This document shows positions 4,672 through 63,430 of a DNA stretch of 64,000 nt, piece after piece. The DNA is from Okamejei kenojei (taxonomy: Eukaryota), in contig CM069140.1 in NCBI GenBank assembly GCA_035221665.1, positions 22,754,001 to 22,818,000 on the forward strand, written 5' to 3'. Position 1 is the first letter of the stretch, and each line of letters starts with the position of its first letter. Under the pieces are notes generated by a model. The model did no database searches. It was not told the origin of the DNA and saw nothing but the letters and a program-made list of their open reading frames with translations. Made by a program: the position numbers and the translations under genes.

Positions 4672-4886
4672 GGAGACAGAAGGAAGTGACAAACATGTGA
4701 TGAACTGGGCTGCATTTACCATTCTCTGTGGGTTCAGATGGTCATAAGCAGAGCAGTAGCCACGCTAGGCCAAGGTGCACCTCGTCAGAATACTTTCTGT
4801 AGGGTATCTGTTGAAGTTCAAGAGAATTCTCGTGAACCTTCTCAGATGCCTAAGAAAGTAAATCTGCTATTATGCTTTCTTGATCA

Positions 4887-5515: not shown

Positions 5516-6466
5516 AAGGGGTTCAGGTTAGATCTCTGGTGATATGGATGCAAAGCAAGTCAATGCTGTTGACCATCTCAATAGCACACTGTAGATGTGG
5601 ATAGCGTTGTGTTCGCCCCTCTGTCCTAACCCCCCCCCCCCCCCCCACAGCTCCCCCCCCCCCCACCACAGCTTCCTTAGATCAACCGCCAACTCCTTCC
5701 TCATGCTGACATGAAGGACTAGGTTGTTCTGACACCATGGCACAATGTTCTCCATCACATTCCTGTACACCTTGTCATAATTGTCATTGATCTGGCTGAC
5801 AACAATGGTACCATCGATGAGTTAAAGATCGTTAGCGCTTTACTGAGCCATATAGTCACAGATGTACAAGGAGTAGAGTAGGGGATGAGCATCATGGAGT
5901 TTATGTTATGATCAATTCGACCCGACAGTACAGATCTTTCAAGTCTTAACTGAAACATACAAGGAGACCAATTGATTTCAACATCTATTTATTTCCAGGG
6001 TTATTTGCATTGTTATTGTACTCCTACCCTTCAAGCATAAAGAAATACATCCTGGCATCAGTATTCAACTTTGCCGCAACTAAATGTAAAATTAGATCAG
6101 TGAGAAAAATGAGATTTAAATGGGATGAAAATAAGGAATGTTGAATATTTCAATTTGTAAATACGTGTACCCCACAAAATTCAGGAAATATTAAAGGACT
6201 TAAAACAGATTATGCTTGTTCTATAAACATCAGAGCTCATAACAAAAACAAAAACCCAATGTCAGATGGTATTTATCCTCCAGCTCTGGGAAAGGGTAGC
6301 GATTTGTAAAGAATTTAAAACCGCTGAGAGAGTTTTTAGTTAACAGGCCAATGAACCAAAAGAGCTGGCAACACAGCACACTATGAATCTTACACTGGAA
6401 ACAACAAATTGTTGTTTGCAAAGTGTTGCCTATCTCTTTACACCACCCAAAGGAGTGTGAGGAAGG

Positions 6467-7262
6467 ATAGACACAAAGTACTGGAGTAGCTCAGCAGGTC
6501 AGACAATATCTCTGGAGAAAAAGGATAGGTGACGTTTCAGGCAGGGACCCTCTTCAGACTGAACGTGGGGATAGGGAAGTGGGACTGGAAGCAAGAAAAT
6601 ACCTAAATAAATCAGGGCCAACAACAGATTCCCTCAGGCAGGGTGGTTCCCTGATAATCAAATTATTGGCAAGAGAGTGTGATCCCATGAGGGATACATT
6701 GTTGCAAACTGGGGAACTTGTTAACTGCCCTTTAGTGGAGGGAGAGTGGGAAGCTAGTGGGAACCTAAATATGAAAAATGTTACATTCACACGGCTGGGT
6801 TGTAAACTACCCAAATGAAGTATGAGGTGCTGTTCCTCCAATTTGCATGTGGCCTCAAGGGCCTGTCCCAATGTACGGTGAGGTAATTCAAGAGTTTGTA
6901 GGTCACGAGCGGCTATTACCTAATTCTCCGAGTTCGAATCAGGGGAAACTCGGGAGAACTCTTGAATTAGCTCGTACAGTGGGACAGGCCCTTTACTCTG
7001 CCAATGGAGGATAAAGGAGGCCCAGAACAGAAAGCGCAGTATGGTCATGGGAAAGGGATTTAAAATGGTTAGCAACTGGGAGATCCAGGCCTTGACGGAC
7101 CGAGCATAACTGTTCAGCGAAACAGTCGCTGAGTCTACGCTTGGTTTACCCGACGTATAGGAGGGTGAAGAAGTGTCCAATCCGAGACATCGTCTTTCTA
7201 TTTCCTCCAGAGATGCTGCCTGTCTTGTTGAAGTCCTCCAACATTTTGTGTTTTGCTTGAGA
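6467..7262. mobile_element. Penelope-like element remnant with inverted terminal-repeat pieces
   Basis: Minus-strand terminal repeat with hammerhead motif (6528-6560), GIY-YIG-like remnant near 7000-7160, and a degenerate plus-strand terminal repeat at 7165-7260. Confidence 0.7.
6858..6992. mobile_element. PIF/Harbinger-like MITE (135 bp) nested in the Penelope remnant
   Basis: TIR AGGGCCTGTCCCA...TGGGACAGGCCCT with 3-bp flanks TCA/TTA. Same family as 13874-14181. Confidence 0.8.
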
Positions 7263-7439
7263 TTCCATCATTTTCATTCATGTGTAACCGAAGGGCCAAT
7301 ATGACCAGGCTCTTAGTTCTAATCTGTCGCTACATTTCATGCAATTATTCAGTTGCTTTTGAGCAGCAAAATATATCACACAAAAATCAGCCTGTATGTG
7401 TCTCTAAAGTCCTAACATGTCCTAAATATAAAGTATTGG

Positions 7440-7750
7440 GTGTAACGGTAGAATTGCTGCCTTAAAGCATCAGTGATATAAAAGCTGTGCTACAACAGCG
7501 GCAGAGCCCCAGGTTCAATCCTAATTACGGGTGCTGTCTCTTTGGACTTTGTATGTTCTCCCCGTGAGTTTTCTCCGAGTGCTCCGGTTTCCTCCCACAC
7601 TCCAAAGAGGTACAGGTTTGTAGGTCACTTGGCTTCGGTAAAATTGTAAATTGTCCCTAGTGTGCGTAGGTTGGGGTAAGTGTACGGGGATCGATGGTCG
7701 GCGGACCGAAGGGCCTGTTTCCGCGCTGTATCACTAAACTAAAACTAAAC
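7440..7750 (+). mobile_element. tRNA-derived V-SINE (HE1-like)
   Basis: B-box-like GGTTCAATCC, V-domain core GTGCTCCGGTTTCCTCCCACACTCCAAAG, and a (CTAAA)n tail. Confidence 0.8.
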
Positions 7751-7949
7751 TCAGCAGGTCGGGCAGCATCCGTGGAGGGAGATGGACGTTGGTCGGCTCA
7801 CTTCTACACTCTTAAGCTTTTCAATTAAATGTTCTCAGCATTTACATTTTTTTTTTTTAAAAAGACCTTTGCAAACTGTCAACTGACCTTCTGACACGTA
7901 TAATTATTTTGACTAAACCGTGCAAAGTTTCTTGACAGTTCCTGTAAAA

Positions 7950-8300
7950 TACACTCCGGCCGGGCAGCGGGCAGCGGGCAGCGGTCAGGTGATCAGCGCC
8001 AACCGCCGCGCTGGGTCACGTGCCTCTCCTGGCGCAGGAGGCGCGCGCACCAGCAAGCAACCGCGCATGCGCAGCGGATCCGGTGCCACGCACTCGTCGT
8101 CCGGCACGCGCGTGCGCGTTGCGTTGGCTCAGAACCCGTAGGCCTCGGTGCAGCCTCACCACTCCTCACATTTGCACCGGCGGTTTTCCCTCTTTAGTAT
8201 TATTGTGTGGGAAATATGGCTGGTTGGGCAGGATTTTCCGACGAGGAGGTGACACGAATGAAGCAATTAAAAGGTAAAAATGTGCATTGAATGCGCGAGG
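7950..8300 (+). promoter_or_regulatory. GORAB: GORAB CpG-island promoter with E-box and NRF1 motifs
   Basis: Very CpG-rich. GTCACGTG at 8015-8022, GCGCATGCGCA at 8063-8073, GCGCGTGCGC at 8108-8117. Directly upstream of the ATG at 8216. Confidence 0.8.
8216..8273 (+). CDS. GORAB: GORAB (RAB6-interacting golgin) coding exon 1
   Basis: Encodes MAGWAGFSDEEVTRMKQLK, matching the GORAB N-terminus (human MAQGWAGFSEEELRRLKQTK). Donor AAG|GTAAAA, phase 1. Not in the ORF track. Confidence 0.95.
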
Positions 8301-9399
8301 TCGCTAATGAGCATTGCTGACGTCCTTAATGTTTCACCCATGGGCTTTCCAATTAATGCACCTCCCTGGGCCTGAGTTGCTCCGAGAGAGAACGACGATT
8401 TCGGTTATGTTGTCATATTTCTCTTACAGCATAAAAATAAAGTAGACCCATCGATGTTAAAGCTCTTAGCGGATCGTCTCTTAGCGGATTGTCTCAAGGA
8501 GTAGAAGGGTTTAAGCGTCTAATGTGAGAAGGAAATAGTTTGCACTTATTTCTGTAGTGCCATTCTTTCAAGATGCCCTGCGCGATACGAGTTACTCGAT
8601 CGGACAGAAAACACGGCAACCCATATGTTGTGCTTTTTTTTTTCAATTTCAGTCATATTTTAAAGTAGCACTTTTTTCTAGCTGTTCAAGATTTCAGGTT
8701 TTTTTAGGTCAAAATCACATGATTTTGTTTAAAATGGGTTAAAACATTAGTACTGCAGAATGATGTGAATGCAGATCTTATTTGTAAATATATTTGCAAG
8801 GTTTCTTCGCTTGGTCTTGCTCTAATATTGCTTTTAAACCTGGAAGTATAGGGTGGTTGCACGTAAGGTCATCAGTTCAAAGGGTGTGACGCATGGAGTA
8901 GCTCAATCCTTCTAGAGTACAAGGCAGCTTCTGGCATACACTAGTAACACGCAACACATGTTCTTACCTGTTAAAAGCCGCCAAAATGGTCAATTTTTGC
9001 GCTGTAAAAATTTGTGGAAATAGGGGTAACCGTGTGAAAACTGCCAAAATCACTCCTGCTCAATGACTTGCGAAAGAGCAGCGGTTTGAGCGCAAGTCCC
9101 GGCCCACAACCGCCTGGAGGGTGACTGAGCGCTCTGAACCAAATGCTCTAGTATCTTTGCTCTGAACCTGAGCACCAAGGTGTAAGCAGCCGAAGGAGCG
9201 CATCCCTCAGGACAGCCCCCACTCTTCCCCTCCCCCCGGGGTCAGCGCTGTCCGCCACGTCTCCTGTGCGGCCGCACTGTCACGGGCTGTGGGTGGGCGG
9301 GCAGTGCCCACACAAGGGGCCGGGTGGAGCGGGGCCGCTGTCCAGGTAGCAGACACATGGGGACGAAACCCTGGCAATGTCCCCGTCAGCTGCAGCAGA

Positions 9400-9590: not shown

Positions 9591-10905
9591 ACAATATATG
9601 ACAATAAACTAAACAGATCTGACATTACAATGGAATGTGCAAGCTGATAAGTTGAGTGAACATAGCAGTTTGATGTCATATTACATGTAATATATAGATG
9701 CATGTCAGGCAATTGATGCAATTGAGTTATACAGAGACCACCAATCTTTTGTTTGAATTCTCTTCTAGTTAAGTAGTGTCAGTAACCTTGCTTTGCAGAC
9801 GATCCTAATACTTGTGGTTGTGAAAATAATTTGAAAACTGGAAATTTAGTGTCATTAGGCTAAATGTTTGTTTTTAATTCATTGATTCATTGATGTCCTT
9901 CACAAAAGCCCTATAACATTTAGCTTTGTGTCCCTGCTGCTAGAAAATGTCAATGTCGTTTGTTGCCATGGAGTTGGGCAATAAATTAAAAAACTTCCAA
10001 CTGTATTGTACCTTTCATTACCCCCCAAAAAAAGCCAAATGAATTACTTGGTCACAGGTGGAAGGGCCTTGTTTGTTAGTTGTCCATATCCTGTTTTTAT
10101 TTTGTTTAAATCACAGCAAAAGGATTCTGGCTCTGACAGCATCGGCACTGCACCAAAATGTCACCTACGATAATGCATTCAAGTTGCAGATTAGCATTTA
10201 AGTTCATGACATTCTGTTAGGGAATTGGTGAATCCTTAAACATCATTGAATAGTTATGATACAGGAGATGACCCATTTGGTCTATTGTGTGTCTGGAGTG
10301 AAAACGAGCAGCCCAGTCTTATCACATGTACAAATGTTTGGAATAAAGCCTGCATGTCACGGCTTCCCAAGTACACTTTCTTTATAATTTTTTTGGTTTG
10401 CAATCCTTTCCCTATCCCTACAACACCACCCCTTCCTCCCTGCCCACTTCCGATGACAGAGACTAATGCTATTTCTCTCTAATCCTACCAAACCGTGTGC
10501 CCATTTTTTTAAAGAGAAATAGGCTTTCCCTTTGCCTCATCTGATCCAAAAAGAAAAACCATAGCATCTGAACTTCCTCGTGTCTACAATATCCCAAGTT
10601 GGGCAATGCCCTAAAATCGATTCTGCACTCTCCTGTGATGCAAATGAAACAAGTTTTGTTCAGATTGATGGTATATTTTACAAGTTATTAACATTTTAAA
10701 CTTTACAAAAAACACGCTTTAAAAAAATAAACACTTTTCCACTTGCCCTGCCCGTCAGCAGCGTTCCACCTCACAATGACGTCACAATGGGATCCCGAAT
10801 TTCAAGGGGCTCTGGTGTTGGGGTGTCTTGAAGAGCATTATGGTGATTCCCATCAGCTTCATCGGTGCACAGAGAGAGGAGAGCAGGGATCTGAGCATGT
10901 TTTAA

Positions 10906-11462
10906 ACGTTTACATGGTAAATGGTAGGGAATTGAGGAATGCTGTGGAACAGAGGGATCTAGGAATAACTGTGCATAGTTCCCTGAAGGTGGAATCGCAT
11001 GTCGATAGGGTGGTAAAGAAAGCCTTTGGTGTGCTGGCCTTTATAAATCAGAGCATTGAATATAGGAGTAGGGAAGTAATGTTAAAATTGTACAAGGCAT
11101 TGGTAAGACCAATTCTGGAGTATGGTGTACAATTTTGGTCGCCTAGTTATAGGAAGGATGTCAACAAAATAGAGAGAGTACAGAGGAGATTTACTAGAAT
11201 GTTGCCAGGGTTCCAGCAACTATGTTACAGAGAAAGGTTGAACAAGTTAGGTCTTTATTCTTTGGGGCGCAGAAGGTTAAGGGGGGACTTGATTGAGGTC
11301 TTTAAAATGATGAAAGGGATAGACAGAGTTGACGTGGATACGTTTTTCCCATTGAGGGTAGGGCAGTTTCAAACAAGAGGGCATGACATGAGAATTAAGG
11401 GACAGAGGTTTCAGGGTAACGTGAGGGGGAACTTCTTTACTCAGAGGGTGGTGGCTGTGTGG
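10906..11462 (+). mobile_element. CR1-clade LINE internal fragment
   Basis: ORF 10743..11492, from YMVNG onward: RDLGI, LVRPILEYGVQFWSP, RLRGDLIEVFK, TRGH. No 3' tail. Confidence 0.92.
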
Positions 11463-13184
11463 TATATGGTTAATTCATCAGAACGGACATGAATGCCACA
11501 GTTCTGTAGTTATGGATGTGGAAGCGATAGTAGAAGCGCACCCAGTACTATTTTATTTTCTAACTAAGGCCAAAAGACACCATTAAGTAATTTTTTTTTA
11601 ACGTTTCTGGTGATGTCAGTTGCAGAAGAAATGTGATGTGAAAACAATAGCCCTATATTAGATATTTATTTTTTTACTTGATCAGGCAGTTAACATTTCA
11701 TTGAATGACATTGCAACAGTATTAAACTGCACTGTACAGAAGTGTCGAGAGAGTTTATTGTCATGTGTCCCAGATAGGACAATGAAATTGTCCTGCGTTA
11801 AATATACTGCCATGACCTTTTGTTTAATCCTAAAGGGAGAAATCACTGTTTAAATTGAATTACAGGTTTTCAATATAATTAACAATGTTACAAGATATAA
11901 CTGGTCTTGTTTGTCTGTATCAAAGATACTTGAGAAGCTCTAATATCTTTGGTCTGTATAAAGAAGTGCATGGATATTTTTGAAGCAAATAAAATGTGGG
12001 GGCCGGGGTTGAAAGCTGTTTATTTAAACTGCATCTTTCCTGGACAATGCAGTGCTTTAAGGAGTCAACATGATTTGGAATTACAAAATAAAATACTTCA
12101 AAACTCTTCATTATATGTAGTACAATTGACATACATTACTGAGGCAGCATTCAGATGAAGTCAACAACCAGGAAAAAAAAAGCTTCATTCAACTGAAGAA
12201 GAGTCTGTGCAAATCCAATCTTTTGAACACTATGGAATCAGTTTATGCTTTTGTGAGAGAAATACATTTGTTTCTAAAAGAGTTGACTTGTGCAAACCAT
12301 GTCCACATTAGTAAGGATTAATAGTTCATGATACCTATAGACTTCCTGTTCATGTGTTTCTTCATGTTGAAAGTCTGGCATCAAATCATGGGAGGGGAGA
12401 TTGGGTGCCAGTCTGTCTGTCTCCCATCTTGCTACCTGAGTTCCAATTTAAGTATTTCTTAAGGTCTTAGCGACATCATGGCTCTGCGGTATAATAAATA
12501 ATGGAAAGGTAGTGTAGCAAAATCAAGAAACTTAAGCCAGCCACTGTTTATCTTGATGCAAGCAGGTTTTGTTAAATGCTCATAGTTTGAACATAAGCAT
12601 TATTCATTTAGACAAGTGTATTTTCAAAGGAGTCACCAGGCTGGCACATACTCCAAAACTGCCTGAATTATAAATCAGAAATAAAACAACTGTGCATTTT
12701 TGTTGATACTGTGTAGTACATTCACTTAATTTAACATTAAGATGGGAATACAAGGTTTCCTGAGCGCTTTCCTGAAAAGTCATTAAAATGTTTAAAACAC
12801 TTACAATTGGGTTGAGGGAATTCAGTCTTTATAGAATCCCAGGATTGAATAAAGCAAACAAAACTGAAAGTGCATGACAAATCATTTCATTCAGTGGTTA
12901 AAATATAATCTTGGATATTTTCTATTTTGAGATCAATAATATTGTTTTGGTTATTTTTAACAAAAGAATCTTGAATGTGAGCAGGAAATGCTGGTTACTT
13001 CAAAAGAGGTGGCATCTTTGGAAAAATAAACAGTTACCATTTCAAATCCAAGAATCTTTGTCAGAACAGGAAAGAGTTTTTAAAATAAATAACTTGTAAG
13101 TTGCAGAGGTGGTGGGAGGAATGTTCAAAACAAATAGCATATCTGATAAGATGAGAATAGGTCAAATGAGCACAGCAGTTAGAA

Positions 13185-14752: not shown

Positions 14753-14927
14753 GTGTGTAAGAAGGAACTGCAGACGCTGGTTTAAACTGAAGATGGACAC
14801 AAAAAGCTGGAATGACTCAGCGGGACAGGCAGCATCTCTAGAGAGAAGAAATGGATGATGTTTCAGGTCGAGACCCTTCTTCAGACAGTCTCGACCCGAA
14901 ACTTAACCCATTCCTTCTCTCTAGAGT
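14753..14927. repeat. Penelope-derived repeat, head-to-head pair
   Basis: Minus copy 14753-14886 abuts a partial plus copy GTCTCGACCCGAAAC...TCTCTAGAG. Confidence 0.75.
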
Positions 14928-18195: not shown

Positions 18196-19005
18196 TTATC
18201 CTCCTTATGTAATTGAACACTTGAGTTAGATCCTGATTTTAAGGGCTTTTAAGTTTGGTTCTTGAAAACTTAAGATCAGTCATTGCACTACTATTGTTTG
18301 TTTTTTGAGTATATATATATATAATGTGGGTGTGTGTACTTGTGAGTGTGTACATATACACACTGAACTTTTTCTCTCGTTTATCATATTGTTTACAGTG
18401 TACTATGTTTACATATTCTGTTGTGCTGCAGCAAGTAAGAATTTAATTATTCTATCTGGAACATATGACAATAAAACACTCTTGAGTCTTAAGATATAAC
18501 CTTGAGTCTCAATTGGTCCATGTTGAATTGTGGTAGCCAAATACAGTTTTAAGTAATTCAATTCATAGTCAAGAATCAAGTGTTTTATTGTCATATGTCC
18601 AAGATAGTTACAATGATCACTTTAAATATAATTGGGACATCAAATGTCCTATCTACTTCAATGAGTGAAGTAATGTTGCACTTTCCTACCTTTTAGTTGG
18701 GGTAGATCTGTAAGCTACATGTGCTGTGTGTCCATTTGCCATGATATCTTAGACCTATAAGCGAGTTCGGTATTCCGACTGCGCATGCCCAGGTCATAGC
18801 CACTAGCTATAAAACAGAGCCCAACTCTACTTCATCCGCCGGAAGGTCCACCTCTTCAATCAACGATTGCTGGCCCACTTTAACTCCACCAAGAAACTAG
18901 CCCGCCTCCAGGCTGCCCCTTGACACTCCGCGACCCGACCGCCTGCAGGCTCTGGCCCACGACGCCATCTTGGCCACGATCCAGCACTCACCAGGACACC
19001 CGGCG

Positions 19006-19240
19006 AATATCGTTGCCGCACCCGGCCCATTGAACACCGCCGTTGCACTGGGCCCATCGAACACCGCCATTGCACTGGGCCCATCCAACATTGTCGCTGC
19101 ACCAGACCTACTGAACATTGGCGTCACACCGGGCCCATCCAATATTGCCGCCGCAACCGGCCCATCCAACATGGCCGCCTCACCGGACCTACCGAACATC
19201 GCAGCCGGACCAGGGCACGCCGAACATGGCCGCTGCACCG
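19006..19240 (+). repeat. 27-bp minisatellite (8-9 units) in the Penelope N-terminal linker
   Basis: ORF 18970..19413 reads NIVAAPGPL NTAVALGPS NTAIALGPS NIVAAPDLL NIGVTPGPS NIAAATGPS NMAASPDLP NIAAGPG. Confidence 0.9.
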
Positions 19241-19641
19241 CGTCCCACTCACCTCGTCGCCTCACCAGGCTGGCTGAACCGCGCCGCCCCACTGACCATC
19301 TGCCCACCGGGACCTCCAAGCATCACCCGCCGACCTGGACTCCTACCATCGATTCCACCGACCCTTGCCACGCCGTCGCCTTACCTGCAGCCTGGACTCA
19401 GAACCGGGCCTGAAGTTTCCATGCTGCAGATTCCCACTCCCCTGGGTTTGACTGTGCTGGGTCCTAGTGCCAGTCCCCCTAACCCTGGTAACCTCAGTGG
19501 CTGTTCCACTGGGTCTTCCCCATCCCCCTCAAACCATGTGACCCAAGCTCTTCCCCACCCACACTACAGTCTTCATGCCCCCCCCCCCACTCCAATCTCT
19601 TCCCCCCTGAATGTACAGCCATCAACTCGCTCCGCAACAAC

Positions 19642-20642
19642 CAGGCACGTGCCGTGAGTAATTACTCAGGGTAGGCAGTCAGCCGGTTTTTAAAAAAACT
19701 TAAACCGTGTGTGCGCAGATTGTTTTCTTTGTAAAAAATAAAAAATAAGTAACCATTCCATTTTCCCAAGGCTTCTCAATCTCCATTTATTAATTACTGA
19801 ATGGGTGGGAGACGGAGGATGAAGGCAGGTGGAGAGATGGTGGGAAAAACGGGAGCATTCCGGGACGTTGAATCAGTTGTCATCTTATTCAATGGCAATA
19901 CTAAATCAAGGGTCCAATTGGAAGGAGAGTTCCTTTCACAGCATGTGGAGAATCTGTGCCAGGGTTAAAGATGTGGGGAGGGCAGGAGTGTTGAGAAGGA
20001 GAGGGTCGAAGATCATATCAGTAACTCACTGACCGCTGCCGCAGTGCTCCGGGCATGGACAGCAGAACTGGCCGCCACTTCCGGGGATAGAAGCAGCTCG
20101 GATGCCTGCAATTGGCCGCCGGGACCCGACAACAGAACAGGCTGCCTCTTCAGCGCCTTCAGCCGGCCCGCTCACCTCTGGCAGTGCTCTTCGTCTGAAC
20201 ATCTCTCACCTGCTGTTGAACGGAGCTCTCCCCCCACCCCGGGAAATACAGTATTTAAAAACATAAAGCACCAAGAAATGCACTTACCACGTTATTGTAC
20301 ATTAAGTCCATTCTTCACTGTTTGTTTCCTAAAATACTATTAAAATAATGGCAATCCATATTTGAAAATCCCACCAAGAAACTCGCGCTGCGCATGCGCA
20401 GTGCTGCAAAGGCAGAATTTCTGCTGCCTTCAGCTCCCCTTGAAATTGACGGCTCAGGCAGCGCTGACGGCACGTGGGCTGCACAGACCTTCCCGTGTTA
20501 CAAGTGCTGCGGATGAAAGGCACGGAGAATTATGCCTACCTAAGAGATCGATCTCTCAGATAGGCATAATTTTCCCATGCCTTTACTATTAATATTTAAT
20601 AATTGCCATTTCATAATTTTAGTCAGGGTAGGCAGTGCCTAG
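19642..20642. mobile_element. Non-autonomous DNA-transposon-like insertion (CAG start) in Penelope; right end apparently deleted
   Basis: Starts CAGGCACGTGCCGT. The subterminal motif TCAGGGTAGGCAGT occurs near both ends (19666 and 20623). Penelope sequence resumes at about 20643. No TSD found. Confidence 0.55.
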
Positions 20643-23199
20643 CTCGTCAAGGGAGGCGCCGTGGTAGTCTGGCACGTCGATCTCTACAAAGCTGAGACCA
20701 CGCGCCAGCTCTAGGACACCTCCTACTTACCCCTGGACCATGACCCCACAGACGAGCACCAGGCCACTATCTCTAGCACCATCACTGACTTCATCCACTC
20801 CGGCTCCCTGCCCCCCCCAAGCCTCCAACCTCATCGTTCCCCAGCCCCGCACGGCCCGATTTTACCTTCTCCCCAAAATCCACAATCCTGACTGTCCTGG
20901 TAGACCCATTGTCTCTGCCTGTTCATGCCCTACTGAACCTATTTCCACATACCTTGACTCCATCCTATCCCCCCCTGGTTAAATGCCTCCCTACCTATGT
21001 TCAAGACTCCTCCGACACTCTCCGTCGTCTCCGGACATTCCATTCTCTAGACCCCCATCCCCTCATCTTCACCATGGATGTCCAGTTACTCTACACCTCT
21101 ATCCCCCACCATGAGGGTCTCAAAGCCATCTGGTTCTTCCTCGACCGGAGAACCAACCAATCCCCATCTACAGATACTCTCCTTACCCTTATCCTGGTCC
21201 TTACCCTTAATAACTTCTCGTTTGACTCCTCCCATTTCCTCCAAATACAGGCACGCATGGGCCCCAGCTATGCCTGCCTCTTTGTAGGGTACGTCGAACA
21301 ATCCTTGTTCGAGATGTACCAGGGCCCCTTCCCCGACCTCTACATCGACGATTGCTTTGGTGCCACCTCCTGCACCCACACACAACTGACTGACTTAATC
21401 CGCTTCACCACTAACTTCCATCCGGCACTCAAATACACCTGGACCGTTTCCGACACTTCCCTACCATTTCTTGACCTCACTATCTTCATCGCAGGTGATA
21501 GACTTTTGACCAACATCCATTATAAACCCACTGACTCTCATGGCTATCTAGACTACACTTCTTCCCACCCTGCTTCCTGTAAAGACTCCATCCCCTACTC
21601 CCAATTCCTCCGTCTACGCAGCATCTGCTCCCAGGATGAGGTGTTCCGCACTAGGGCATCGGAAATGGCCTCATTCTTCAGGGAATGGGGTTCCCCTCCC
21701 CCACTATAGATGAGGCTCTCACCTGGGTCTCTTCAATACCGTGTAACACTGCTCTCTCTCTCCCCATCCCCTCACTCGTAACAAGTGCAGAGTCCCCCTA
21801 GGCCTCGCCTTTCACCCTACTATCCGTCACATACAACAAATAGTCCTCCGTCATTTTCGCCGCCTCCAACGTGACCCCACCACTCGCCACATCTTCCCAC
21901 CTGCAACGGTGCCCTCCCCGCCCCGCCCCCCCCCCCCCCCCCCCGGTCTCCCACTGAAAAAAGACAATAAATCAGACCCAGACTATACTCTATCTACAGT
22001 GCTTCTGTTCGATTTATATTTATAGCGTTCGACCTTTGACAAATCCCACGATTCCTTGCATTTTTCGGAATACCGAACGAGACAGTCCTGTTTCAACCAC
22101 CAGATGTCATCAGTTGGCCTAGTTAACACAGCGTAATGATTTCCTGAAGATATCAGGTTGCACTCTTAATATTCTATCAGAAAATCTTCTGAAGAATGAG
22201 AGCTGAAATAAAATAGTTGATTCATCTACATCCTGAAAATCTCATTCAAGTGTTGGTTTGGTTTAAAAGATAGGTGATCATCAGTCCTTGATAATGCAAC
22301 TTGTAAGATAAAGAGCAAGCAACAAATTTCATACCATTCTTATCCACCAGTTGCTAAATGGATCAACAACAATCATGCAATTCTTGAAGGATACTTTCCA
22401 AGTTACCATTGTTTATTTAAAACTTCCAGAACGCTTAAACATTTAAGATTTACTTCACTCCCCTAATCTTCAAAATACGTAAAATTCTCTAGCTCTTATT
22501 ATAGGTATTTCAGATGTGATTACTGCAATAACAATCTGTTTTCACAGGTGGAAAGCGTTTCTTTAAATATCCACTGCTGCCCAGGTATTTTAAGTGTATT
22601 TGCCAACTGTATCAGACAACTATGTAAAACATATGATAAGATGCAACTTGAATGTCACACTTTGTGACTATATAACACATAGCAGGTGTTAATTGATAAA
22701 GCTTCCCCATACCCCTGCATGCAGAACGTACTGTCTCCTAGCAGTATATTAGTGATGACTAAGTTGTTCTTTGTTCCATTCCTACTCCCACCATTTATTC
22801 CAATCCGACGCCTACTATTTTAATGGAAAATGGATTTGCCTATTAAATTATTTTATAAGAGAGACTAACATTCATCTCAGAAATTTCAATTTCATGTTTA
22901 TCACTGTTGTATCTACTGCACGATTTAGAATTAAAATCAAGTCATTGCCATTCTTTAATAAACGTTGTATTTATTTCTCATTTCCACACTTAATGGGGGA
23001 GGAATAAGCTGCTAGGTTTGGGATAGAGGAATAGCACTAAATAAGACTCGACAAGACTAATAATATATGGCTACGACTAGGTAAAAGCTCCATGGATTGG
23101 GCAGCATCTGAGGCAAAAAATAAACGCAGTTAATGTTTCCAGGTGTTCTTATGAAAGGTGCATGTGAAACATGAACTCTATTAGAAGGGAAGTAAACGT

Positions 23200-29047: not shown

Positions 29048-29700
29048 CAATAGACAATAGGTGCAGGAGTAGGCCATATGGCCCTTCGAGCCAGCACCGC
29101 CATTCAATGTGATCATGGCTGATCATCCTCAATCAGTATCCCGTTCCTGCCTTCTCCCCATAATCCCCTGACTCTGCTATTTTTAAGAGCCCTATCTAGC
29201 TCTCTTGAAACCATCCAGAGGACCTGCCTCCACCGCCCTCTGAGGCAGAGAATTCCACAGACGCACCACTCTGTGAGAAAAAGTTTTCCTCGTCTCCGTT
29301 CTAAATGGCTTATGCCTTATTCTTAAACTGGCCCCTGGTTCTGGACTCCCCCAACATCGGGAACATGTTTTCAGCCACTAGCGTGTCTAAGCCCTTAACA
29401 ATCTTATATGTTTCAATGAGATTCCCTCTCATCCTTCTAAACTCCAGAGTGTACAAGCCCAGCTGCTCCATTCTCTCAGCATATGACAGTCCCGCCATCC
29501 CGGGAATTAACCTTGTAAACCTACGCTGCACTCCCACAATAGCAAGAATGTCCTTCCTCAAATTAGGGACCAAAACTGCACACAATACTCCAGGTATGGT
29601 CTCACTAGGGCTCTGGACAACTGCAGAAGGACCTCTTCGCTCCTATATTCGATTCCTCTTGCTATAAAGGCCAACATGCCATTCGCTTTCTTCACTGCCT
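29048..29700 (-). mobile_element. CR1-clade LINE 3' end
   Basis: ORF 29310..29585 (LRKDILAIVGVQRRFTRLIPGM, ESRTRG). (CAATAGA)n tail at 29048-29060. Similar to 1036-3500. Confidence 0.9.
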
Positions 29701-31835: not shown

Positions 31836-33052
31836 ATCTCTTACAATTTTTTTATGTATTACTTTATGTGATGCCATTTGGTAATGTGTGTGACATTTTG
31901 GTTCACTTTCCAAAGAATGGCCCAACAGAGGAAGTAAGTAGAATAAAAAGAATTTGGTATCACAGCATGTTCAGATAATTAAAGGAAGGTGGTGGGTGAG
32001 GGATACAAGTTGGGTCTCTGCTCAAGGAGGAAATGATAGGCCCTGTCTATCCTGGTGGAGGACGGGGGTGTAACATGTACATGAAGAAAATTAGGTAGTG
32101 TGAGCCAGGAAATTAGAAACTGTTAAAGCCAGAAGGGCCGTAAATGTGAATGAAGAGAAAACGTGGTCTGAACAGACCTGAGTTTTTTAAAGTTTTATTT
32201 CAGATTTCAAGAAACGACAGTAATTGGCTTTTACTAGATTTTGAGAAACATCCACTGAAACTTTATATAAAGCATATGTAATGTATTACCAAAATAGGTA
32301 GCATAAGTAGTGACAAAAACCATGTTTGTACGTGTGGGAAAGGAACAGCAGGATATGAGGATGAGAGATAAATGGCAGCAAAGAACATATATACAGAAAG
32401 ACCCTTTACCGTAAATCTTGAAACTCTCCGTAGGTCTGACCAGTATCCTTTTAAATGCTTTCAAATGATACTGTTACAAGAACAATAATGCAAATATTGC
32501 ATTTATAAAGTCAATAATCTTGGGATTAGAAGAAAGATTTGAGGACTTCATTTGTTTTACAAGTTACAGTCCGTGTGTTTGTAATGTCTTTAAGGACAGT
32601 ATTGGCCCCTTATTTAATGATGAGAGTTTTTGTTTATTTGGAAATATTTTCAAAAACACAAATACCGATGTATTATATATTGTCACAAGTGATTCTAAGA
32701 TAAGACTGAGTTTCAGATCCTTCTGTATCACTGGAGAGCGTAAAATAATTTATTTGCAAGATGGGCATTATTATCCCTCGATATTCTGCACAGTGATGGG
32801 CGGTCATTTGAACACCAGTTAATGGAACAAAGTTGTGTTAAGTTACTAGAGGGTCAGTGTCCTACAGCAGAGCTAAAAAATGATTCCCTATCAATTAAGA
32901 TAATTTTCCTATAACCCAAAGAGGAAGATCGGTAAGGGATCATTGCAAAATAAATATTCGCAGCCCCATTGTATTGCAATGCAACTGTTTTATTGCCTTC
33001 AGATGGTATTTCCACAATATTGCCTCATTGTTTGTCATTTCCTGGCCCTCAG

Positions 33053-33491
33053 GAAGAGGTATGATAAAGCAGAAGTGGAATATGTTGCAGCTAAGATGGA
33101 TCTTCACAAGAAGATTGAACAGAAGGAGCAACTGACTGAGCATCTGTGTGCCATAATCCAGCAGAATGAACTACGCAAATCTAAGAAGTTGGAGGAACTG
33201 ATGCAGCAATTGGAAATGGAGACAGATGATGAGCAGCTAGAACTAGAGATTGAAGTGGAAAATATGTTACAGAGTCAAGAACTAGCCAAGGCAACTGATC
33301 AGACAAGTGCAGGAACTGACAAATCATCACAGCAGAGTATTCAACAGGGAGACAGCAAGAATCAATCACTGAAACAAACTGAAACGGAAACAGAGAATGC
33401 TGTTACTTGTGAAGCAGATAGGAAAAATTCAAAGGACCAATTTAATATTAAAGGAACTGAATTTGAATTGCAGAATTCCAGAGAAGATTGA
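33053..33491 (+). CDS. GORAB: GORAB coding exon 5 (terminal, TGA at 33489-33491)
   Basis: CCTCAG|G acceptor. Encodes [50 protein letters not shown]. The spliced CDS totals 1095 nt (364 aa plus stop). Confidence 0.96.
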
Positions 33492-43523: not shown

Positions 43524-43757
43524 GTGTAGAAATAAGGAACTGCAGTTGCTGGTTAAACAAAAGACACCAAGTGTCGGAGTATCTCAACGAATCGGGCAGC
43601 ATCTCTGGAGAACATAGATCGGTGATGTTACGGGTCGGGATCCTTGTTCAGAATAATTCGGGCATCAGTCTGAAGAAGGGTCCCGAACCGAAACGTCACC
43701 TGTCCATGTCCTCCAGATATGCTGCCTGACCCGCTGAGTTACTCCAGCACTTTGTGT
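43524..43757. repeat. Head-to-head pair of Penelope-derived hammerhead repeats (long hairpin)
   Basis: Arm 43562-43652 is an imperfect reverse complement of 43669-43757, with a 16-nt spacer. Confidence 0.85.
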
Positions 43758-45848
43758 ATTGTATTGTAGTTATGCAGTGGCCGGGTTGATCGGCCAAATT
43801 ATTCCGATCAAAGTAAGGATCAATGACCTTCCAAATATTCCGCTGCAGGTGTTAAATTGTATCTCAAGGCTTTGAGCAGAATATCGAATTGTACCATCAA
43901 GTTCGCTGCTCCACTGATGAGCAGACTTCGACCCGAATGGACTGTGGAAAGTGAGTAGGTTTGCAGTGCAGATTGTCGATGTCGAACTGGCTTTGGTGAC
44001 TTTTCCAGTGTGTCTCGGGTCTGCCATACTCTTCAGGAATCTAGACAGAGTTACTGTACTTTAAATGTTTCAAACGCCCAGTCTGGCGCCCTCAAAACAC
44101 TTAAATGTAATGCACTCAGTGAGTGTATGTCCCAGAACTGAGTCCAGTATCCTGACTGCGGTGACAGCAGTACGACTCAATCCGGTTCTCCCAAGTCAAA
44201 ATCGATTCTGGATCAGCTAGGATCGCATATTATTAGGCGCAGTATAAGCATAACCAAGACGAAGAGAGGGAGACGATTAATCTCTCGAGTCTAGAAAGAT
44301 GTCTTTAACTGAATAATCTCCCAATTCACTGTTCTCAAGGGGCCCCATTGTAACAGTCTGCGCAATGCCTTGGGTTACCATGGTTAAATAAATCAAATGC
44401 GTGCGCTCTTCAAGTAAAGATCTCTGAAAGGGTCAAACAATCAGATTTAATCTAAACGGGTTGCTTCAAACACGTGGGAGAGACATTGCTGGTCTTAAAT
44501 TTCTATCCACAGACGATAAACCGGCAAATCTTTTTTTTCTGTAATGAACAACATTCGGTGATGCGATGCACAATGCAGCGAGAGTATTTAGGTTGTTTTC
44601 ATTTCTCCCGACAAATGAAAAATCGTGTTGGTACTTTAGACGATCTCCCGTTAAAAGTCTTTCTGATTTTTGTGGAGCCAGTCTTTCCAGACATGTTGGA
44701 ACGGATTATGTAATCTGAGAAGTGGCTGGACAGTGAATTCAACCTTTCTTCTGGAAACGTTGCCTCCGGCAGTGCAATCGCATTTTAGTTTTTAACCATT
44801 GTGTACATGAACCTAATATTAAATAGCATAAAATCCCGCAGCTATTTTTAGAAAGAGTGGTGCGTTGTACTAAATTCATAAACTATTAATTCCATACATT
44901 TGGAATTCATTATCTTTAACATTTCCCTTATTCCGTCGGTAGTAAATTACAAAATTACCTTTTAATTTTTTTTTGTGAATATAGAAATGAATTTTAATCT
45001 CTGTTTCTTCAGGGCGGAGCACGGACGACCATAAATCGCCCTCCGTAACCAGATTCCCCAAATTCCTGGCTCTTATCAATATACAGTCAGATAAATGTCA
45101 AATAGATTATAGGTAGCATTTTGCCAAAAGAAAATTACGGTATGTGATTGGAAATATTTTGTTCCCAAGTCTGTGTCTTAAGGTTTGGCGGTTTACAAAA
45201 ATGCTTTTATCTTTACAGCATAAATTAGTTAACATGGATGACGCTATCAATGTCTCATAATTAACGGACCTAAAGAATGACAACATTGACTGGCAGCGGT
45301 GGAGTCAGAGTAATCTTCAGTTTGTGAAACGTGTTGCTATCTATATTAACAATCGGGCAAAGAAACATTCCACATATTGTGACACATGAAAACTAATAAT
45401 TGGAAACAATTACACATCTTGTTCGTTTTTTTAAATGTTTTGATAACCTGAGAATTTGTTTTAATTCAATGTAAATATATATTCAAAAACTGAGTTTATG
45501 TACCCATTTGATTTCCTGATTTGTTATTAAACCTTTCTACATCTATAATGAAAATTGCGAACTATCGTCCGAATGGCGATGCCCGATTGTCATATTTCAG
45601 GTCAAATTAGATACTATCTGCCCTGTGACATCTGTAAGTAGAGGGTTGGTTAATTACTTAATTATTAACAAACTTTGATTTATATCACGATGCTATTCAC
45701 CAACTGACATCGCTACTAATCCGACGTAACTTTAAACATCATAGGTTATTTACCTCTGTTCCGAGCGCCAAAACAATAGTTTCGGATATATAAAGAAGGT
45801 TATATTAACTAGTTCAGATTGTTTGTTAGTTCTGGGATTCTGGAAAAC

Positions 45849-45882
45849 GGTCTGAAGAAGGGTCTCGACCCGAAACGTCACC
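45849..45882 (+). ncRNA. Minimal type-I hammerhead ribozyme motif in a Penelope-derived repeat (repeat extends to about 45945)
   Basis: GGT-CTGAAGA-A-GGGTCTCGACCC-GAAA-CG-TC^ACC: helix I GGU/ACC, core CUGANGA...GAAA, helix II GGGU(CUCG)ACCC, palindromic ACGU helix III, GUC triplet. Activity untested. Confidence 0.7.
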
Positions 45883-46999
45883 CATTCATTCTCTCCAGAG
45901 ATGCTGCCTGTCCCGCTGAGTTACTCCAGCATTTGTGTCTACCTTCTAGAAAAACCTAATATGCACGGCATTGATTCAAATCATATTGGTTAATTATATG
46001 CCAGCAGCATAAAATAGATTTTAAACTAGACCTAACCGCCATCATATCAAATAGATAGGTAATTTGAAAGTAACTACAATCAATTTGTTTTATACCCGTA
46101 TCATATATGTAGGTGAATTCCTTTGCTTTTTTCAAGTGACTAATTACAATTACTGCATCATTATCCCAGCATGCATACACACACTGTTGATATATTCTAC
46201 CAGGTCGTTTGAAACTTTACCACCGCAAGTAGAAATAGACAAATCATTCACAGCGTGGACAACTGATCAGCTAATTTTTACATTATATTCGCTAAGCACC
46301 GCGCAGGTGTTGATCAGATGGCTGGGCTGGCTAGCTGATTATCGTACTCGTAATACTTGTACGACGTTTCAGGTAGGAAATTAACTTTTGTGCAGTAGTC
46401 ATAGTTTATTCAAATTTATATTTCAAATTGCTTTCTAATGTACTGCCACTGAAAAGCTGTTTACTGTTAGCTGATTACATCCGTGTGGGTATTTACGTAT
46501 AAGTGTGGAAAGGTTTAACATAACATGTGTTGTGCAGTGATAACTAATACATGTGTGCGTTATCTATGGGTTTTGCAATTACACATACACTTATCCGTTC
46601 ATCTACCTGATATCTGATGTACACCGCTTTTAATATAGCACAATACCACCAATTTTACAAAAATCATTCAATGAATTTATTACAATTAAATGAACGACCA
46701 TAAATGAAGATGAAAAGATGAAATCTAATTGCATTTAGCCTCCATCGTTCACTGTTATGGCCCTGTCGATAATGAGACCTGCGAACCTGGCAGCAACAAT
46801 GATCGTTGGATGAGTTCAGGTAATGAGTCGCAGGGACGGTGTTTGAAAAAAAATGCTTGAGAATATAGGTAATCTATTCTCCTTTGTACTCTTCAGCAAG
46901 GACATAAAATGCGATCTTAACGATAGTCAAAAGGAGAGCTGTTTTCAATGATGGGGTGTAGTTCTGCAGTACGGATTGGATTATTCAGAAAAATGCACA

Positions 47000-50983: not shown

Positions 50984-51017
50984 AGTCTGAAGAAGGGTCT
51001 CGACCCGAAACGTCACC
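50984..51017 (+). ncRNA. Minimal hammerhead ribozyme motif in a Penelope-derived repeat (repeat about 50865-51075)
   Basis: AGTCTGAAGAAGGGTCTCGACCCGAAACGTCACC; core identical to 45852-45882. Confidence 0.68.
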
Positions 51018-52910
51018 TATTCTTTTTCTCCTGAGATGCTGCCTGTCCCGCTGAGTTAATGGAGCGTTTTGTGTCACTCAAGGGATAATATTAACGGTTC
51101 TAGCATGGAAGTACCGTGGAAATAAACCATATATAGTGATACTATTCCCATTATATGATTTTTCTTTCTTGGAGAGAGGACATCCAAACTAACACTTTAT
51201 ATCGGAAATCATCTTTGGGATATTCTATCACCACCCTTTCAGCTAATGGGGCACCTTTAGCACATGTCTGTGAGACAACTTCTAAACATCAGTGAAGCAA
51301 CTAGCCTGCATTTGGCTGCTTGTGAATTCTGATCAAACATTTGACTCCCCATATAAAGTGATCCCGGAATTGAAGGGTGGGACCTCAATGTCCAAGCTGC
51401 CAGCTGAATATCTAAAACGAAGAAACGAGCTGAAAAAAAAATCACATAAAGATATTTTATGTCTGCTATTGTCGAATAATTTCCTCTCAAGTTTCCAGCA
51501 TCTGCGACTATTTTTTTTTAACATTCATATTCCATAATTGGAAACATTTTAAAATACAAATATAACAAAAATGCAAACAGCCAGTGCGAATGCAAACCAA
51601 ATAGCGTTGGTTATTTTGACTGGATAGCATCATTTGCGTTTCCACCGCTGCTTTGCCGGCGCTTCAAAAAGAGAACAGAGGGACCTGGGTTTGGTGTATG
51701 GAGAACTTCAATAAAAGCAAATCTGACGGGGATCCTGTGGGCAGTGCATGTTGGATTGTATTCTAATAGATCCCGCCAACGATTAAACAAATCATTCTCA
51801 AAAGTGCTGAATTATACCTCACGCTACCAGTAAGAGAGGTGATTACGGCATACTGAGCGTGTTAAATTCTGATTCTATTTCAGAAGTGCTTTATTAGTCA
51901 CATGCACCGGATGTGAACCGGAACAATGAAATTGTTACTTCAGCAGATTTATACTATTCTATATTAGTTTTAAATTAAAAATAGTATCTCCGAACTTAGA
52001 CCTGTTCAACTTCATCTAGCCAAAGTGGGGTATGTGTTTGTGAGGGAAGGGTTGATTGTATGGTACTTTAAGTGGGTCCCGCCGACGCACCCACGCCAGC
52101 AGAACGAGGCGTTTTGACATCTGGCAAATTTCTTCAAAATAAAGGTTATAACGCGATTTGAAAAATAAACACGCACGTCGGTTGGAGGAGCAATTAGACA
52201 CCGTACAATATCAGGTTAATAAACTTCCTGGCGAGTTCATTTGACGTTTCCTTCCGTGACTATGAGTCCGGCTTTAACAAATAATGGGGAAAGGAGGGGG
52301 GAGGGGAACGTTTTCGCCAAACAGATGTTGACAGAAGTCTCAATTCAATGATATTTGTAGATGAAAAAGACAGACATATAGCACTGGCACCGAACTGGCC
52401 GCCCAAATCTAGGAAAAGGGTCTGGAGGGAAACTAATGATGAAAAAAAAACGTCTACCCCGTCTCAGTTGCCTTAATTAAATGCATGGAAAGAACCGAGA
52501 GGCTCACATCTGGTTTCAATATGGTTCTCTTTGATGGCATCAAGTGTTCTTTTCCCATATCAGGCCGCCGCAAGTAATAGGACGTCTATTCCAGCGCGGA
52601 GCCCAGACTCCTGCCATTTCCACACATGGACTCCCTTCATTCCTGTTGAGTCCTCTTACTGAAAGCTCACGCAATCTTCGGCATGAGGACAGAATATCAC
52701 GGAATGCTGCGGGGCGGGGGAGGGGAATGATAACTTCAAAACTATATAACATCTTTGCAAAAATTTAATAAAAACGAGAAAGGAACTGAATCTTTCACAT
52801 GCTTGTTTTTGCTGGTAATGCGTTCAAACGCACCGCGAGACACTCGCGGAAATCGCCAAACAGAAAAAAAACAACTGAAAATGCCTATTCGTGAAAAAAA
52901 CTTCTGGCAT

Positions 52911-57102: not shown

Positions 57103-57136
57103 AGTCTGAAGAAGGGTCTCGACCCGAAACGTCACC
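57103..57136 (+). ncRNA. Minimal hammerhead ribozyme motif, sense strand, PRRX1 intron 1 (repeat about 57015-57200)
   Basis: AGTCTGAAGAAGGGTCTCGACCCGAAACGTCACC; intact core. Confidence 0.68.
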
Positions 57137-58760
57137 CATTCCGTCTCTCCAGAGATGCTGCCTGTCCCGCCGAGTTACGCCAGCTTTTTGTGTCTATCTA
57201 CGGAGATTGTGATTTGCTTAAGCCTTGATCTGAAGCATTTTCGGGCGGAATCAACTGTTCGTTAACAGTTGCATGCAGCCGTCTACAATATCATGAAATA
57301 CAGGTTGACTTGCGCAAGATTACAAACCTATTCACGCACCCATATAAAGGGGCACTGGAATGCAAGTTCGAATCTGGAGCAGAGTTTGAATACAACCTTA
57401 CACCGCAGCAGAAATAAATTGTCTAAGAAATATCTAAATTGGAATGCACACCCCGCTGGCACTTCAAGCGTTGTAGCCATGTCTTCAATTAATGTGAGAA
57501 ACAGGCATCGATTAAACCAGGTGCATTAACCGATTCAGGCAAGTGGCTTTTTTCTCAAATCAGCATGTACCACATCCACTGTTATAAGATTGCAATGCCA
57601 TCAAAAGCACCTATTTTCAGCGCTAAATCTCAACTATCCATCATGAACGGGTGGCTATTTGTTAATGCAGTATAGTGCCCAGTTTATTGTATCACAACAG
57701 TTAACTCGTACAATATGTAACTCGCATCCATCATATAATTATATTATTCTTCAGTATAGTGTCAGATCATGGAAACAAATCTGAAGTTGCTTGGAGACTC
57801 CTGCAGGAGACACGACTTTCATTGGTAGGATGGCCATTTCATTGCAGTTTTAGCCATTGTAAAAACTGCCCTTTAATGGACAAGGGGAAATATCTTAGTG
57901 TAAATATTTCTCTTTCCTCACGCAAGTTTCCTGTTCTAGGAAGTTCCCTGTCGTGGTTTCTGTTTCAATTATACCTCGGGAAACCTGTACTTCTTGGGAA
58001 AATATTGATGCTTAGAACCGCGAATCCACTCATCAATCAAAGCATCGGCCTGATTTTGGAAATGAGTAATAAAGATAAAAGAAACGGTTTAGTTAAATGG
58101 AAGATGCAGCCCCAGGTATTCAGGGCAGAAATAATGTTGGAAAAACACGGAGCACACAAGCCCTATTTTATGACCCCTTTATGATTTATTTTTAAAAATA
58201 GGACTGTAAAGGGGTTCGAAAAGCAACAGGAAAGATTCATCTGATAAACTGAAGTCATATCAAATAGCTACAGATGTAAAACTTGCAGGGACACCTACGG
58301 AGAGAACATGCTAGCCTGTCCCGCTGAGTTACTCCAGCTTTTTGTGTCTATCTTCGGTTTAAACCAGCATCTGCAGTTCTTTCTTACACATGCTACATTT
58401 ATTAAATAATTGTTCAGGATCAAATGGCCGTTTGGTCTGGACATTTGCCCTTGGCTTGGGGAGATCGACCAGTTTTGCAGACAATTCCAAGTGCGAAATG
58501 GCAATGTTTTAGTTTGAAGTGCATGGATCGTGTTGTCTCTTGCTTCCTTCTCCAGTTGAAACCTAGCAGTAGTTTTAACAAAATGATCAGCATTAACCTT
58601 CGCGGAGAGATATTTGACGGTTAAACGCGGCCATAAGACAGAGAGACAGGCTGCAACCGAACTGCACAAACAGTATGTTCTTCAGATCCCTTGTACTCCA
58701 ACTAGAGCCTTCTTTCTCGTTTAATTCCGCAAGTGCTAACTGATTAAACGGTGCGTATAA

Positions 58761-60473: not shown

Positions 60474-61165
60474 ATGTGTGGGAAGGAACTGCAGATGCTG
60501 GTTCACACCGAAGATAGACACATATGCTGGAGTAACTCAGCGGGACAGGCAACATCCCTGGAGAGAAGGAATGGGTGACGTTTAGGTTCGAGACTTGGGT
60601 GCGGAATGAAATCCCCGACTCCCACAAATCCCAATGTAAGAAAACAGGGGAAGGTTCGCACTTTAAGCAAGTGTGCCTTCAAGCTGAGAACCGAAATCTC
60701 CCAAGCACAAGAACTCCAAATCAATAATTGTGCGTAAACCAGAAAATGAAATAATGGTATCGGTATATTCATCAATCCTTCCGTTCTCCAGTGAGGATCC
60801 AATGTACCACGTGTAGCAAGGAACTGCATATGTTGGTTTCAATGTTGGAGTAACTCAGCGGGACAGGCCGAATCTCTGGAGAGAAGGAATGGGTGACGTT
60901 TCAGGTCAAGACCCTTCTTCAGATTTGGGTGATGGTCTGGTTTGCGTCCGTAATTCTCTGCAATTTTTTTTTTTTTTTTTTTTTTTGCAGTCTTGCATGG
61001 CAGCATCTCTGGAGAGAAGGAATGGGCGACGTTTCGGATCGAGACCCTTGTTCTGATGGGAAAGGGAAACGAGAGAGGTCTGAAGAAGGGTGTCGACCCG
61101 AAACGTCACCCATTCCTTTTTGTGTCTATTTTCGGTTTAAGCCAGCATCTACAGTTCCCTCCCTC
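60474..61165. repeat. Cluster of Penelope-derived hammerhead repeats in PRRX1 intron 2 (three minus, one plus)
   Basis: Minus motifs at about 60573-60596, 60891-60922 and 61024-61056. Plus motif GGTCTGAAGAAGGGTGTCGACCCGAAACGTCACC at 61077-61110. Confidence 0.82.
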
Positions 61166-62154: not shown

Positions 62155-63430
62155 TATCTGCAGCAAGGAACTGCAGATGCTTGTTTAAACCGAAGAAAGA
62201 CACAAAAGGCTGGAGTGACTCAGCGGGTCAGGCAGCATCTCTGGAGAAAATGAATAGGCGACGTTTCGGTTCCGAAGGAGGGCCTCGACCGGAAACGTTA
62301 CACCTAATCTTTTTTTCTTCAGAGGTACTGCCCGACTCGCGGGGTTGCTCTAGCTTTTTATGTCTTTCTGACGTTTGTTTAGATGTATACAGAAGAGGCA
62401 AGGCACTGCAGATGCTAGAATCTTGGGCAAACACCACGTACTGGAGGAATCAGTGGGTCCGGCAGCATCAGGAGATGGAATGAACAGGCGACGTTTCTGG
62501 CCCAGACCCTTCTTCACGCTCAATAAACTCTTTCCCATATAAACAAAACTTCCAGCAAAATACTCTAATGGTTAAACAACCAAGCGACTTTAAAATATGT
62601 TTTAATTCCCGTGTATCGACTTGAGGTACCCAATGTTATGGAATGGTCACACTCATAAACTATTGAAACCTCTTTACTGCAGATGGCTAGTTGAGAAGAT
62701 GTACAACTGGTCTATTCGTTCCGCCTGCCAGTTCCTAAGGTTTGATGATGGTACAGCAGGGGGGGGGGTGGTCGCTAACGTCCCAAACCAAAATATCATT
62801 TCAAAAATGCAACTTTAATGTTGTCTCCCAAAATATCCCCTCTGTAACTCTGGAGATTGCATCATCAAAGCCATTTTCTCCCGATCAAACGACGATCCCT
62901 GAATGGCTTCCCAGAACGCTTTACTCGGGCTATGCCCCATTATAGAATGTAATGAGCGATACACATTTTGACCTGGCAAGAAACTGAGCCGGAAATAAAC
63001 CGCTGGAGGAACTCAGCGGACCAGACAGCATCTGCGAGGGGATGAACCTGATACATGATCTGTGTAGGACCTGTGTCTCCCTGATTACATTTTATCTCTG
63101 TTTGCTTTGTTGTCACCTTCTTCCAGCTAACAATTATCTATTCTAAATTTTCCTTGAGCTTTTATCTCTTTTGATATCTCGTTTTGACACCTTTCCCTTC
63201 CTTATCGCTGAGTCTTGCTCTCCCATGACTTTCAGTCTGAAGAAGGGTCTCGACCCGAATCGTCACCCATTCCTTCCACCCAGAGATGCTGCCTGTCCCG
63301 CTGAGTTACTCCAGCATTTTGCGTCTATCTGAGACATGGTCTGTCCGCTGCCGCTGCCGCTGCCTGAGCCTCTCCAGCACTTTTGTGTTTTTTGATGTAA
63401 CTAAAGATTTCAGCATCTGCAGCCTTTTGA
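62155..63430. repeat. Further Penelope-derived repeats in PRRX1 intron 2 (62155-62370, 62400-62520, 62990-63430)
   Basis: Same family. The copy at 63234-63268 has GAAA changed to GAAT in the catalytic core. Confidence 0.75.

Follow-up and report, generated by a model that had tools for sequence, protein, structure and literature searches.

Hammerhead-bearing short repeats in the skate Okamejei kenojei as probable by-products of a Penelope-like element

A short repeat in the genome of Okamejei kenojei carries what appears to be a minimal type-I hammerhead ribozyme, and it raises the question of whether such copies propagate by themselves or descend from a larger element. The stretch analysed, hereafter the window, comprises 64,000 nt of assembly GCA_035221665.1 (contig CM069140.1, 22,754,001 to 22,818,000). 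A sequence-only reading of it had proposed a retrozyme-like non-autonomous family. The evidence collected here argues with good confidence for another origin, in which the hammerhead belongs to the terminal repeat of an EN+ Penelope-like element (PLE) and the copies of ~100 nt are likely dead cDNAs of the first 97 bases of a likely capped RNA. Positions in the element are numbered from +1, the A of AGTCTGAAG in the parent element, which places the predicted cut between +31 and +32.

The hammerhead parts described at 45849-45882 read as they had been drawn (Table 1), the conserved core CUGANGA ... GAAA ... UH is present, and the minimum-energy fold of the isolated 34-mer is the drawn hammerhead fold. 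The stability of the 34-mer was not above that of shuffles (z +0.74), and in the 98-nt context of the motif another fold beat the hammerhead fold. The min-HHR descriptor matched 6 times within the window and 20 times across 600 kb taken arbitrarily from the genome, that is 26 in 664 kb, against 0 matches in each of 10 shuffles of the 664 kb. G-C was the commonest pair at 10.1-11.1, and the extra base between core and helix II was present in 25 of the 26 matches. The extra A had been entered as a caveat, which falls away because PMC4209133 counts the extra base among the features conserved in this class.

Helix I had been given as GGU/ACC, and three pairs do form in the 45849 copy, but in that copy alone, as G45849 is not element sequence. 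G occupies +1 in 3,308 of 48,215 exact cores and the ORF-linked copies carry A (AGU with GCC), so the family helix I consists of 2 bp with an A.C mismatch at the third position (79 of 84 copies). A modelled dimer fold via the palindromic 15.2-16.2 reached -10.7 kcal/mol, and an alternative helix II duplex was lower, at -22.5. An Rfam scan of the window returned no hammerhead match at E<=10. Core columns were kept better than the 3' part (0.94 versus 0.84), a difference driven by subfamily mixing and hence no proof of selection on individual copies. Hammerheads of other PLE families were sought with a pattern carrying U at position 7, and the 100 matches listed out of 964 were mostly same-family variants. 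Helix II showed no compensatory changes among the copies, which varied little and departed mainly by CpG decay; the argument for selection on the fold is therefore carried by its conservation across divergent endonucleases and UTRs, described below. The motif matches the minimal hammerhead pattern of the Penelope-like kind, an assignment supported by the descriptor and by its location in PLE terminal repeats, and self-cleavage is predicted.

Table 1. Positions of hammerhead parts, hammerhead-bearing copies and Penelope-like coding remnants in the window
Feature	Position	Strand	Basis or remark
5'-truncated Penelope-like copy: endonuclease C-terminus, 3' UTR, hammerhead repeat	6468..7163	-	
Head-to-head pair, one partial arm	14793..14926	both arms	
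Broken Penelope-like ORF pieces: N-terminal parts 18813-19588, RT 20649-21899	18813..21899	+	69-89% identity to intact protein
Head-to-head pair, tail on one arm only	43561..43761	both arms	
Probable imperfect target-site duplication, left copy, 10 nt	45839..45848	+	sequence
Minimal type-I hammerhead motif	45849..45882	+	fold matching, descriptor
Junction G (A in parent element)	45849	+	supplies the third helix I pair in this copy only
Tailless solo copy (older subfamily B) of the head of the Penelope-like RNA, from +2 to roughly +97 of the element	45850..45946	+	
Hammerhead core CUGAAGA	45852-45858	+	sequence
Hammerhead extra A	45859	+	sequence
Hammerhead helix II, 4 bp, CUCG loop	45860-45871	+	sequence
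Hammerhead GAAA box	45872-45875	+	sequence
Palindromic helix III ACGU, loop-less	45875-45878	+	sequence
Hammerhead CG; UC	45876-45877; 45878-45879	+	sequence
Predicted hammerhead cut	after C45879	+	sequence
Probable target-site duplication, right copy	45945..45955	+	sequence
Copies likewise preceded by PLE 3' UTR (as at 57103)	50984-51079; 63234-63330		
Copy preceded by PLE 3' UTR, ordinary 5'-truncated insertion	57103..57199	+	
Two partial copies head to head, one arm with 3' UTR bases	60999..61159	both arms	
Head-to-head pair joined via helix II microhomology, one-arm tail	62163..62366	both arms	

About 20 intact or decayed copies on both strands had been noted from the letters alone; a profile built from 18 natural copies found 27 in the window and 0 in its reversed sequence, covering all 16 positions that had been given. 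Self-comparison of the window gave the hammerhead repeat up to 18 partners and other repeats at most 2, in agreement with its description as the commonest short repeat. In 60 arbitrary 10-kb stretches the profile found 244 copies (0 in reversed sequence), from which 1.12 +/- 0.21 million copies, making up 3.3% of bases, are estimated for the 2.76-Gb genome. Genome-wide there are 48,215 occurrences of the exact 28-nt core (control 0) and 77,222 of a degenerate core, so that the claim of very high copy number is borne out. Elsewhere in the window, a coiled-coil frame at 32904-33491, which gave no Pfam match, presumably resembles the last exon of GORAB, and 2195-3356, 10731-11492 and 29226-29700 hold what we take to be fragments resembling CR1/L2-type LINE reverse transcriptase ends.

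The Penelope reverse transcriptase (RT) placed at 20643-21903 is indeed there, but it is a frameshifted fragment with neither endonuclease (EN) nor pLTR attached and is unjoined to any hammerhead copy. This fragment has many relatives in the genome, some in open frames of up to 1197 aa, and in all 20 of the 20 long-ORF loci the repeat lies downstream of the ORF, 5 of them having it at both ends. A match to the termini of full-length Penelope elements, whose absence the sequence-only reading had named as counting against it, is found. One locus, L032, is a partial tandem consisting of an endonuclease end, 3' UTR, repeat, 165-nt leader, ORF, 3' UTR and repeat. The parent protein, 1197 aa in a single frame, carries DKG, YIDD and GIY-YIG motifs with a CxxC before the YIG, and its Pfam matches (RVT_1, E 5e-6; GIY-YIG, E 0.004) both fell under the Pfam cut-off. 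A CX4CxxC linker between RT and EN (residues 1064-1072 of P0001) points to the Neptune or Nematis clade, for which a CX2-5CxxC linker is the criterion in PMC8557442. The parent element has a partial-tandem pLTR, an optional tail and inverted copies.

The unit at 6468-7163 ties the hammerhead repeat to a PLE inside the window as well. Both main subfamilies were also found joined to endonuclease, and the subfamily B repeat stands in addition behind endonuclease ends 43-84% identical to the parent protein and behind several differing UTRs, so that the hammerhead was kept while its neighbours diverged. Two intact 1197-aa elements, L031 and L032, are ~98% identical with near-identical terminal repeats; their family is young and may be active. 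The ORF start of L032 (2308-2345) is part of a predicted hairpin and shares bases with AAG/GTATG, a splice donor that looks strong and is kept in several subfamilies.

The short copies have a characteristic anatomy. Among 253 scorable random copies, 36 were UTR-linked (a lower bound), 93 head-to-head and 124 solo. The 5' ends of 79 young subfamily-A copies lay at -10..+6 in 40 cases, at -200..-11 in 1, further upstream in 31 and inside the head in 7; another subfamily's 3' UTR is possible in some of the 40 short ones (at least one, and five look so). For 123 young subfamily-A copies, the 3' ends fell at +91..+104 in 79 and at +120..+143 in 40, with 3 running into the ORF and 1 elsewhere. A flank word of >=8 nt was shared in 19 of 39 solo short copies, versus 2% in shuffled pairings; target duplications accompany many of the copies. 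The copy at 45849 follows the solo pattern, with probable left and right target duplications differing by one mismatch and one indel (by eye); it is probably inert, and its G45849 is likely a copied cap or possibly an A>G change. Starts at +44 were seen in 55 of 357 solo copies of selected loci versus 1 of 124 in the random set. At C4:11448775-11448981, C2:137651883-137652108 and C6:118521266-118521418, matches spaced 57-64 nt apart hint at small tandem arrays that span +32/35..+93 and leave out the hammerhead.

This anatomy bears directly on the proposal of a separate non-autonomous retrozyme- or SINE-like family, with its own transcription, cutting by paired hammerheads and re-insertion via circular RNA. 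In its favour, 217 of the 253 sampled copies (~86%) have no detectable PLE 3' UTR, leader-length head-to-tail joins exist, if rarely, retrozymes have been proposed to arise from pLTRs (bioRxiv 10.64898/2026.07.22.740005), and Penelope promoters can be internal (PMC2377424). However, 279 random copies included 21 same-strand neighbour pairs within 330 nt, which yielded 1 partial direct join and 0 full-leader tandems, and only 1 of 78 tandem arrays of period >=30 touched a copy. The copies begin at +1 rather than at the predicted cut site, and they stop at +97 or +131, without the RNA ~55 nt past its start sites that the anole element PAc requires. The same subfamilies are, moreover, joined to endonuclease and 3' UTR elsewhere in the genome. 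Lacking tandem monomers, endonuclease- and UTR-linked in its subfamilies, and ending where the parent RNA starts and at two RT start points, the repeat does not bear out the retrozyme-like family, which is now considered improbable; a minority of self-propagating short masters is possible.

The 5' edge is informative in a different respect. Restart insertions, in which the head runs from +1 to about +38 and then begins again at +1, gave 372 matches, and several of their junctions sit inside one target duplication. The base before +1 at restart junctions was G in 94 cases and A/T in 23; this G is untemplated, as the restart position excludes a target origin and the donor sequence lacks G. In full-length L1 insertions the cap is marked by an additional G at the 5' end (PMC11702581). 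The untemplated G before +1 accordingly suggests an RNA that started at the first bases of the hammerhead and likely was capped there, although terminal-transferase activity, which can act at any RNA end, may also have produced it. Ordinary genomic junctions had a weak G excess, 37% and 49% of non-templated bases. The hammerhead's 5' edge carries YCAGTCT, which looks Inr-like.

If the copies were instead plain 5'-truncated insertions of the 3' repeat, the +1 edge would mark an RT stall or fold-back at the hammerhead inside a longer RNA. Most PLE insertions lack their 5' part and have inverted partners (PMC8557442, PMC3846280), helix II microhomology occurs at some inverted joins, and the +1 edge is spread over about 15 bases, which counts for a stall. 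A stall would, however, be expected on the 3' side of the structure, before the enzyme has passed it, only 1 of the 79 starts lay at -200..-11 yet 31 lay further upstream, and the untemplated G points to a physical RNA end, all of which makes a stall an unlikely source of the edge.

Still less probable is a reading of the +1 edge as a 3' splice site (CAG/TCTG, CTRAC upstream), the copies then deriving from spliced or back-spliced RNA. YCAG is found at the +1 edge in all UTR-linked subfamilies, copies at two loci show an exact join of the leader's GT donor (+163/164) to +3, and the D. virilis Penelope intron ends at helix I (PMC4209133). Yet this join yielded just 3 exact matches, from those two loci, among 20 allowing one mismatch; joins from about +190, with no following GT, were equally common, most copies keep the AG, and no constant upstream exon precedes them. 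In L292:1166-1597 (C16) and L293 (C3), where +163, just before the ORF's ATG, is joined to +3 after CAG, the copies look like processed copies of an RNA that was either back-spliced or had its entire ORF spliced out.

Fossils of ribozyme cleavage were looked for at +32. Only 244 of 40,214 subfamily-A copies (0.6%) started at the predicted cut site, compared with control starts of 459 at +35 and 112 at +29, so there was no 5'-end excess at +32 among these copies, and 3 of 30 inspected +32-start rows were clean solo truncations. Restart junctions, by eye among the 100 of 372 matches listed, fell for the most part at +34..+39, immediately beyond the hammerhead on its 3' side, and dropped after +39, with +31 not being the main landing point; they could represent jumps onto short capped RNAs or re-priming beside the fold. 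The lack of a cut-site end excess agrees with the uncleaved template and protein-needing cleavage of PAc (PMC11167929), as it does with the finding that min-HHR dimers are only slightly active (PMC4209133).

In the 116 scorable of 150 head-to-head pairs, the tail was present on one arm in 94, on neither in 16 and on both in 6, versus expected values of 57.6, 34.2 and 24.2; pairs of the random set alone gave 30, 5 and 1. The long inverted insertions L038 and L044 obey the same one-arm rule and carry target duplications. Truncation fell on the tail arm in 28 pairs and on the tail-less arm in 14 (p 0.04), a difference that is not relied on. As the two hammerheads of a pair lie on opposite strands, a single transcript holds one of them. 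Most pairs have one end point per arm. This split of +97 and +131 is read as one site per target strand in inverted pairs, and this step stays inferential because PAc in vitro showed no strand difference in start site (PMC11167929).

Taken together, these observations can be assembled into a mechanism. Transcription would start at the 5' edge of the hammerhead, where the RNA would be capped, and a protein of the element would bind the leader and cut both target strands. Reverse transcription would then be primed internally at +97 and +131, the ends being observed here and the mechanism borrowed from PAc, whose two internal start sites and tail they match. Where the RNA is primed in its 5' repeat, only a dead product of 97 or 131 nt running off the cap would result, and where it is primed in its 3' repeat, the ordinary long or 5'-truncated copies, a distinction suggested by the bimodal 5' ends. 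Both target ends would prime, one per site, to leave two cDNAs joined head to head. The template would be mostly uncleaved RNA, and cutting by the ribozyme would need either dimer formation or the aid of protein. A more speculative extension, considered rather doubtful, makes the hammerhead, which would occupy bases 1 to 34 of the capped RNA, a decapping switch and not a cutter of tandem monomers; its protein-assisted or dimeric cut would remove the cap and sort RNA between template use and translation or decay, coupled with an enzyme dimer priming the two strands at +97 and +131, with ~1 million copies recording both.

The role of the hammerhead in PLEs is an open question (PMC8557442, PMC11167929), and a very large fossil record narrows it, suggesting that template RNA was likely capped at the ribozyme's first bases, that insertions came from uncleaved RNA and that start sites were split between arms. 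The cap signature, the arm rule and the missing cut-site ends make the question more testable, and a young intact element is at hand for tests. For annotation, ~3% of the genome that looks SINE- or retrozyme-like would be better filed as PLE by-product. The literature listings covered showed no paper on this skate family or on twin priming in PLEs.

The ribozyme class and its Penelope-like home are already known, minimal hammerheads having been described in the pLTRs of metazoan PLEs in 2014 (Cervera and de la Pena, PMC4209133). The skate motif shares with the min-HHR the CUGANGA and GAAA boxes, the unpaired base between 9 and 10.1, G10.1-C11.1, the palindromic 15.2-16.2 without a loop, the place in both pLTRs, and the occurrence as mostly single dispersed motifs with some close opposite-strand pairs. 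Helix II has 4 bp here versus 7-8 bp in Schistosoma, and helix I has 2 bp, as in D. virilis, versus 4-5 bp in Schistosoma. Supplementary file 2 contains no shark or skate row, and the 48,215 exact cores of low sequence variety contrast with the ~4,000-9,000 motifs of coelacanth and Xenopus (PMC4209133).

With animal non-LTR retrozymes, the skate copies share a non-coding nature, a type-I hammerhead, pLTR kinship and high copy number (PMC7229834; bioRxiv 10.64898/2026.07.22.740005). Retrozymes, however, form head-to-tail tandems of 150-450 nt monomers with hammerheads that are canonical in the cases tested in PMC7229834, whereas the skate copies are solo or head-to-head, their motif is minimal, and in place of the cut-site-bounded unit of retrozymes they start at +1 and end at +97 or +131.

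The closest functional parallel is PAc, the Poseidon element of Anolis carolinensis, for which two internal RT start sites, cutting and extension of both strands and an uncleaved RNA template were reported in vitro, with hammerhead cleavage needing protein (Frangieh et al. 2024, PMC11167929). Two internal RT starts ~35 nt apart that define the tail, a hammerhead upstream and the absence of apparent cut-site ends are common to both elements. In the skate element the hammerhead and both starts lie in the 165-nt leader upstream of the first ATG, in contrast to PAc, where they lie across the ORF start, and the skate protein has a CX4CxxC linker of the Neptune/Nematis type, unlike PAc. With the insertion units of EN+ PLEs (PMC3846280, PMC8557442) are shared the head-to-head inverted copy, the target duplication of ~9-14 bp and the 30-40-bp tail on one end, which was already described there qualitatively; unlike the described units, those of the skate mostly have 97-131 nt per arm, and the one-arm rule has been counted here (94 of 116). 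Inversion was attributed in PMC3846280 to self-priming on an antisense template, whereas the skate data fit priming by both target strands on sense RNA.
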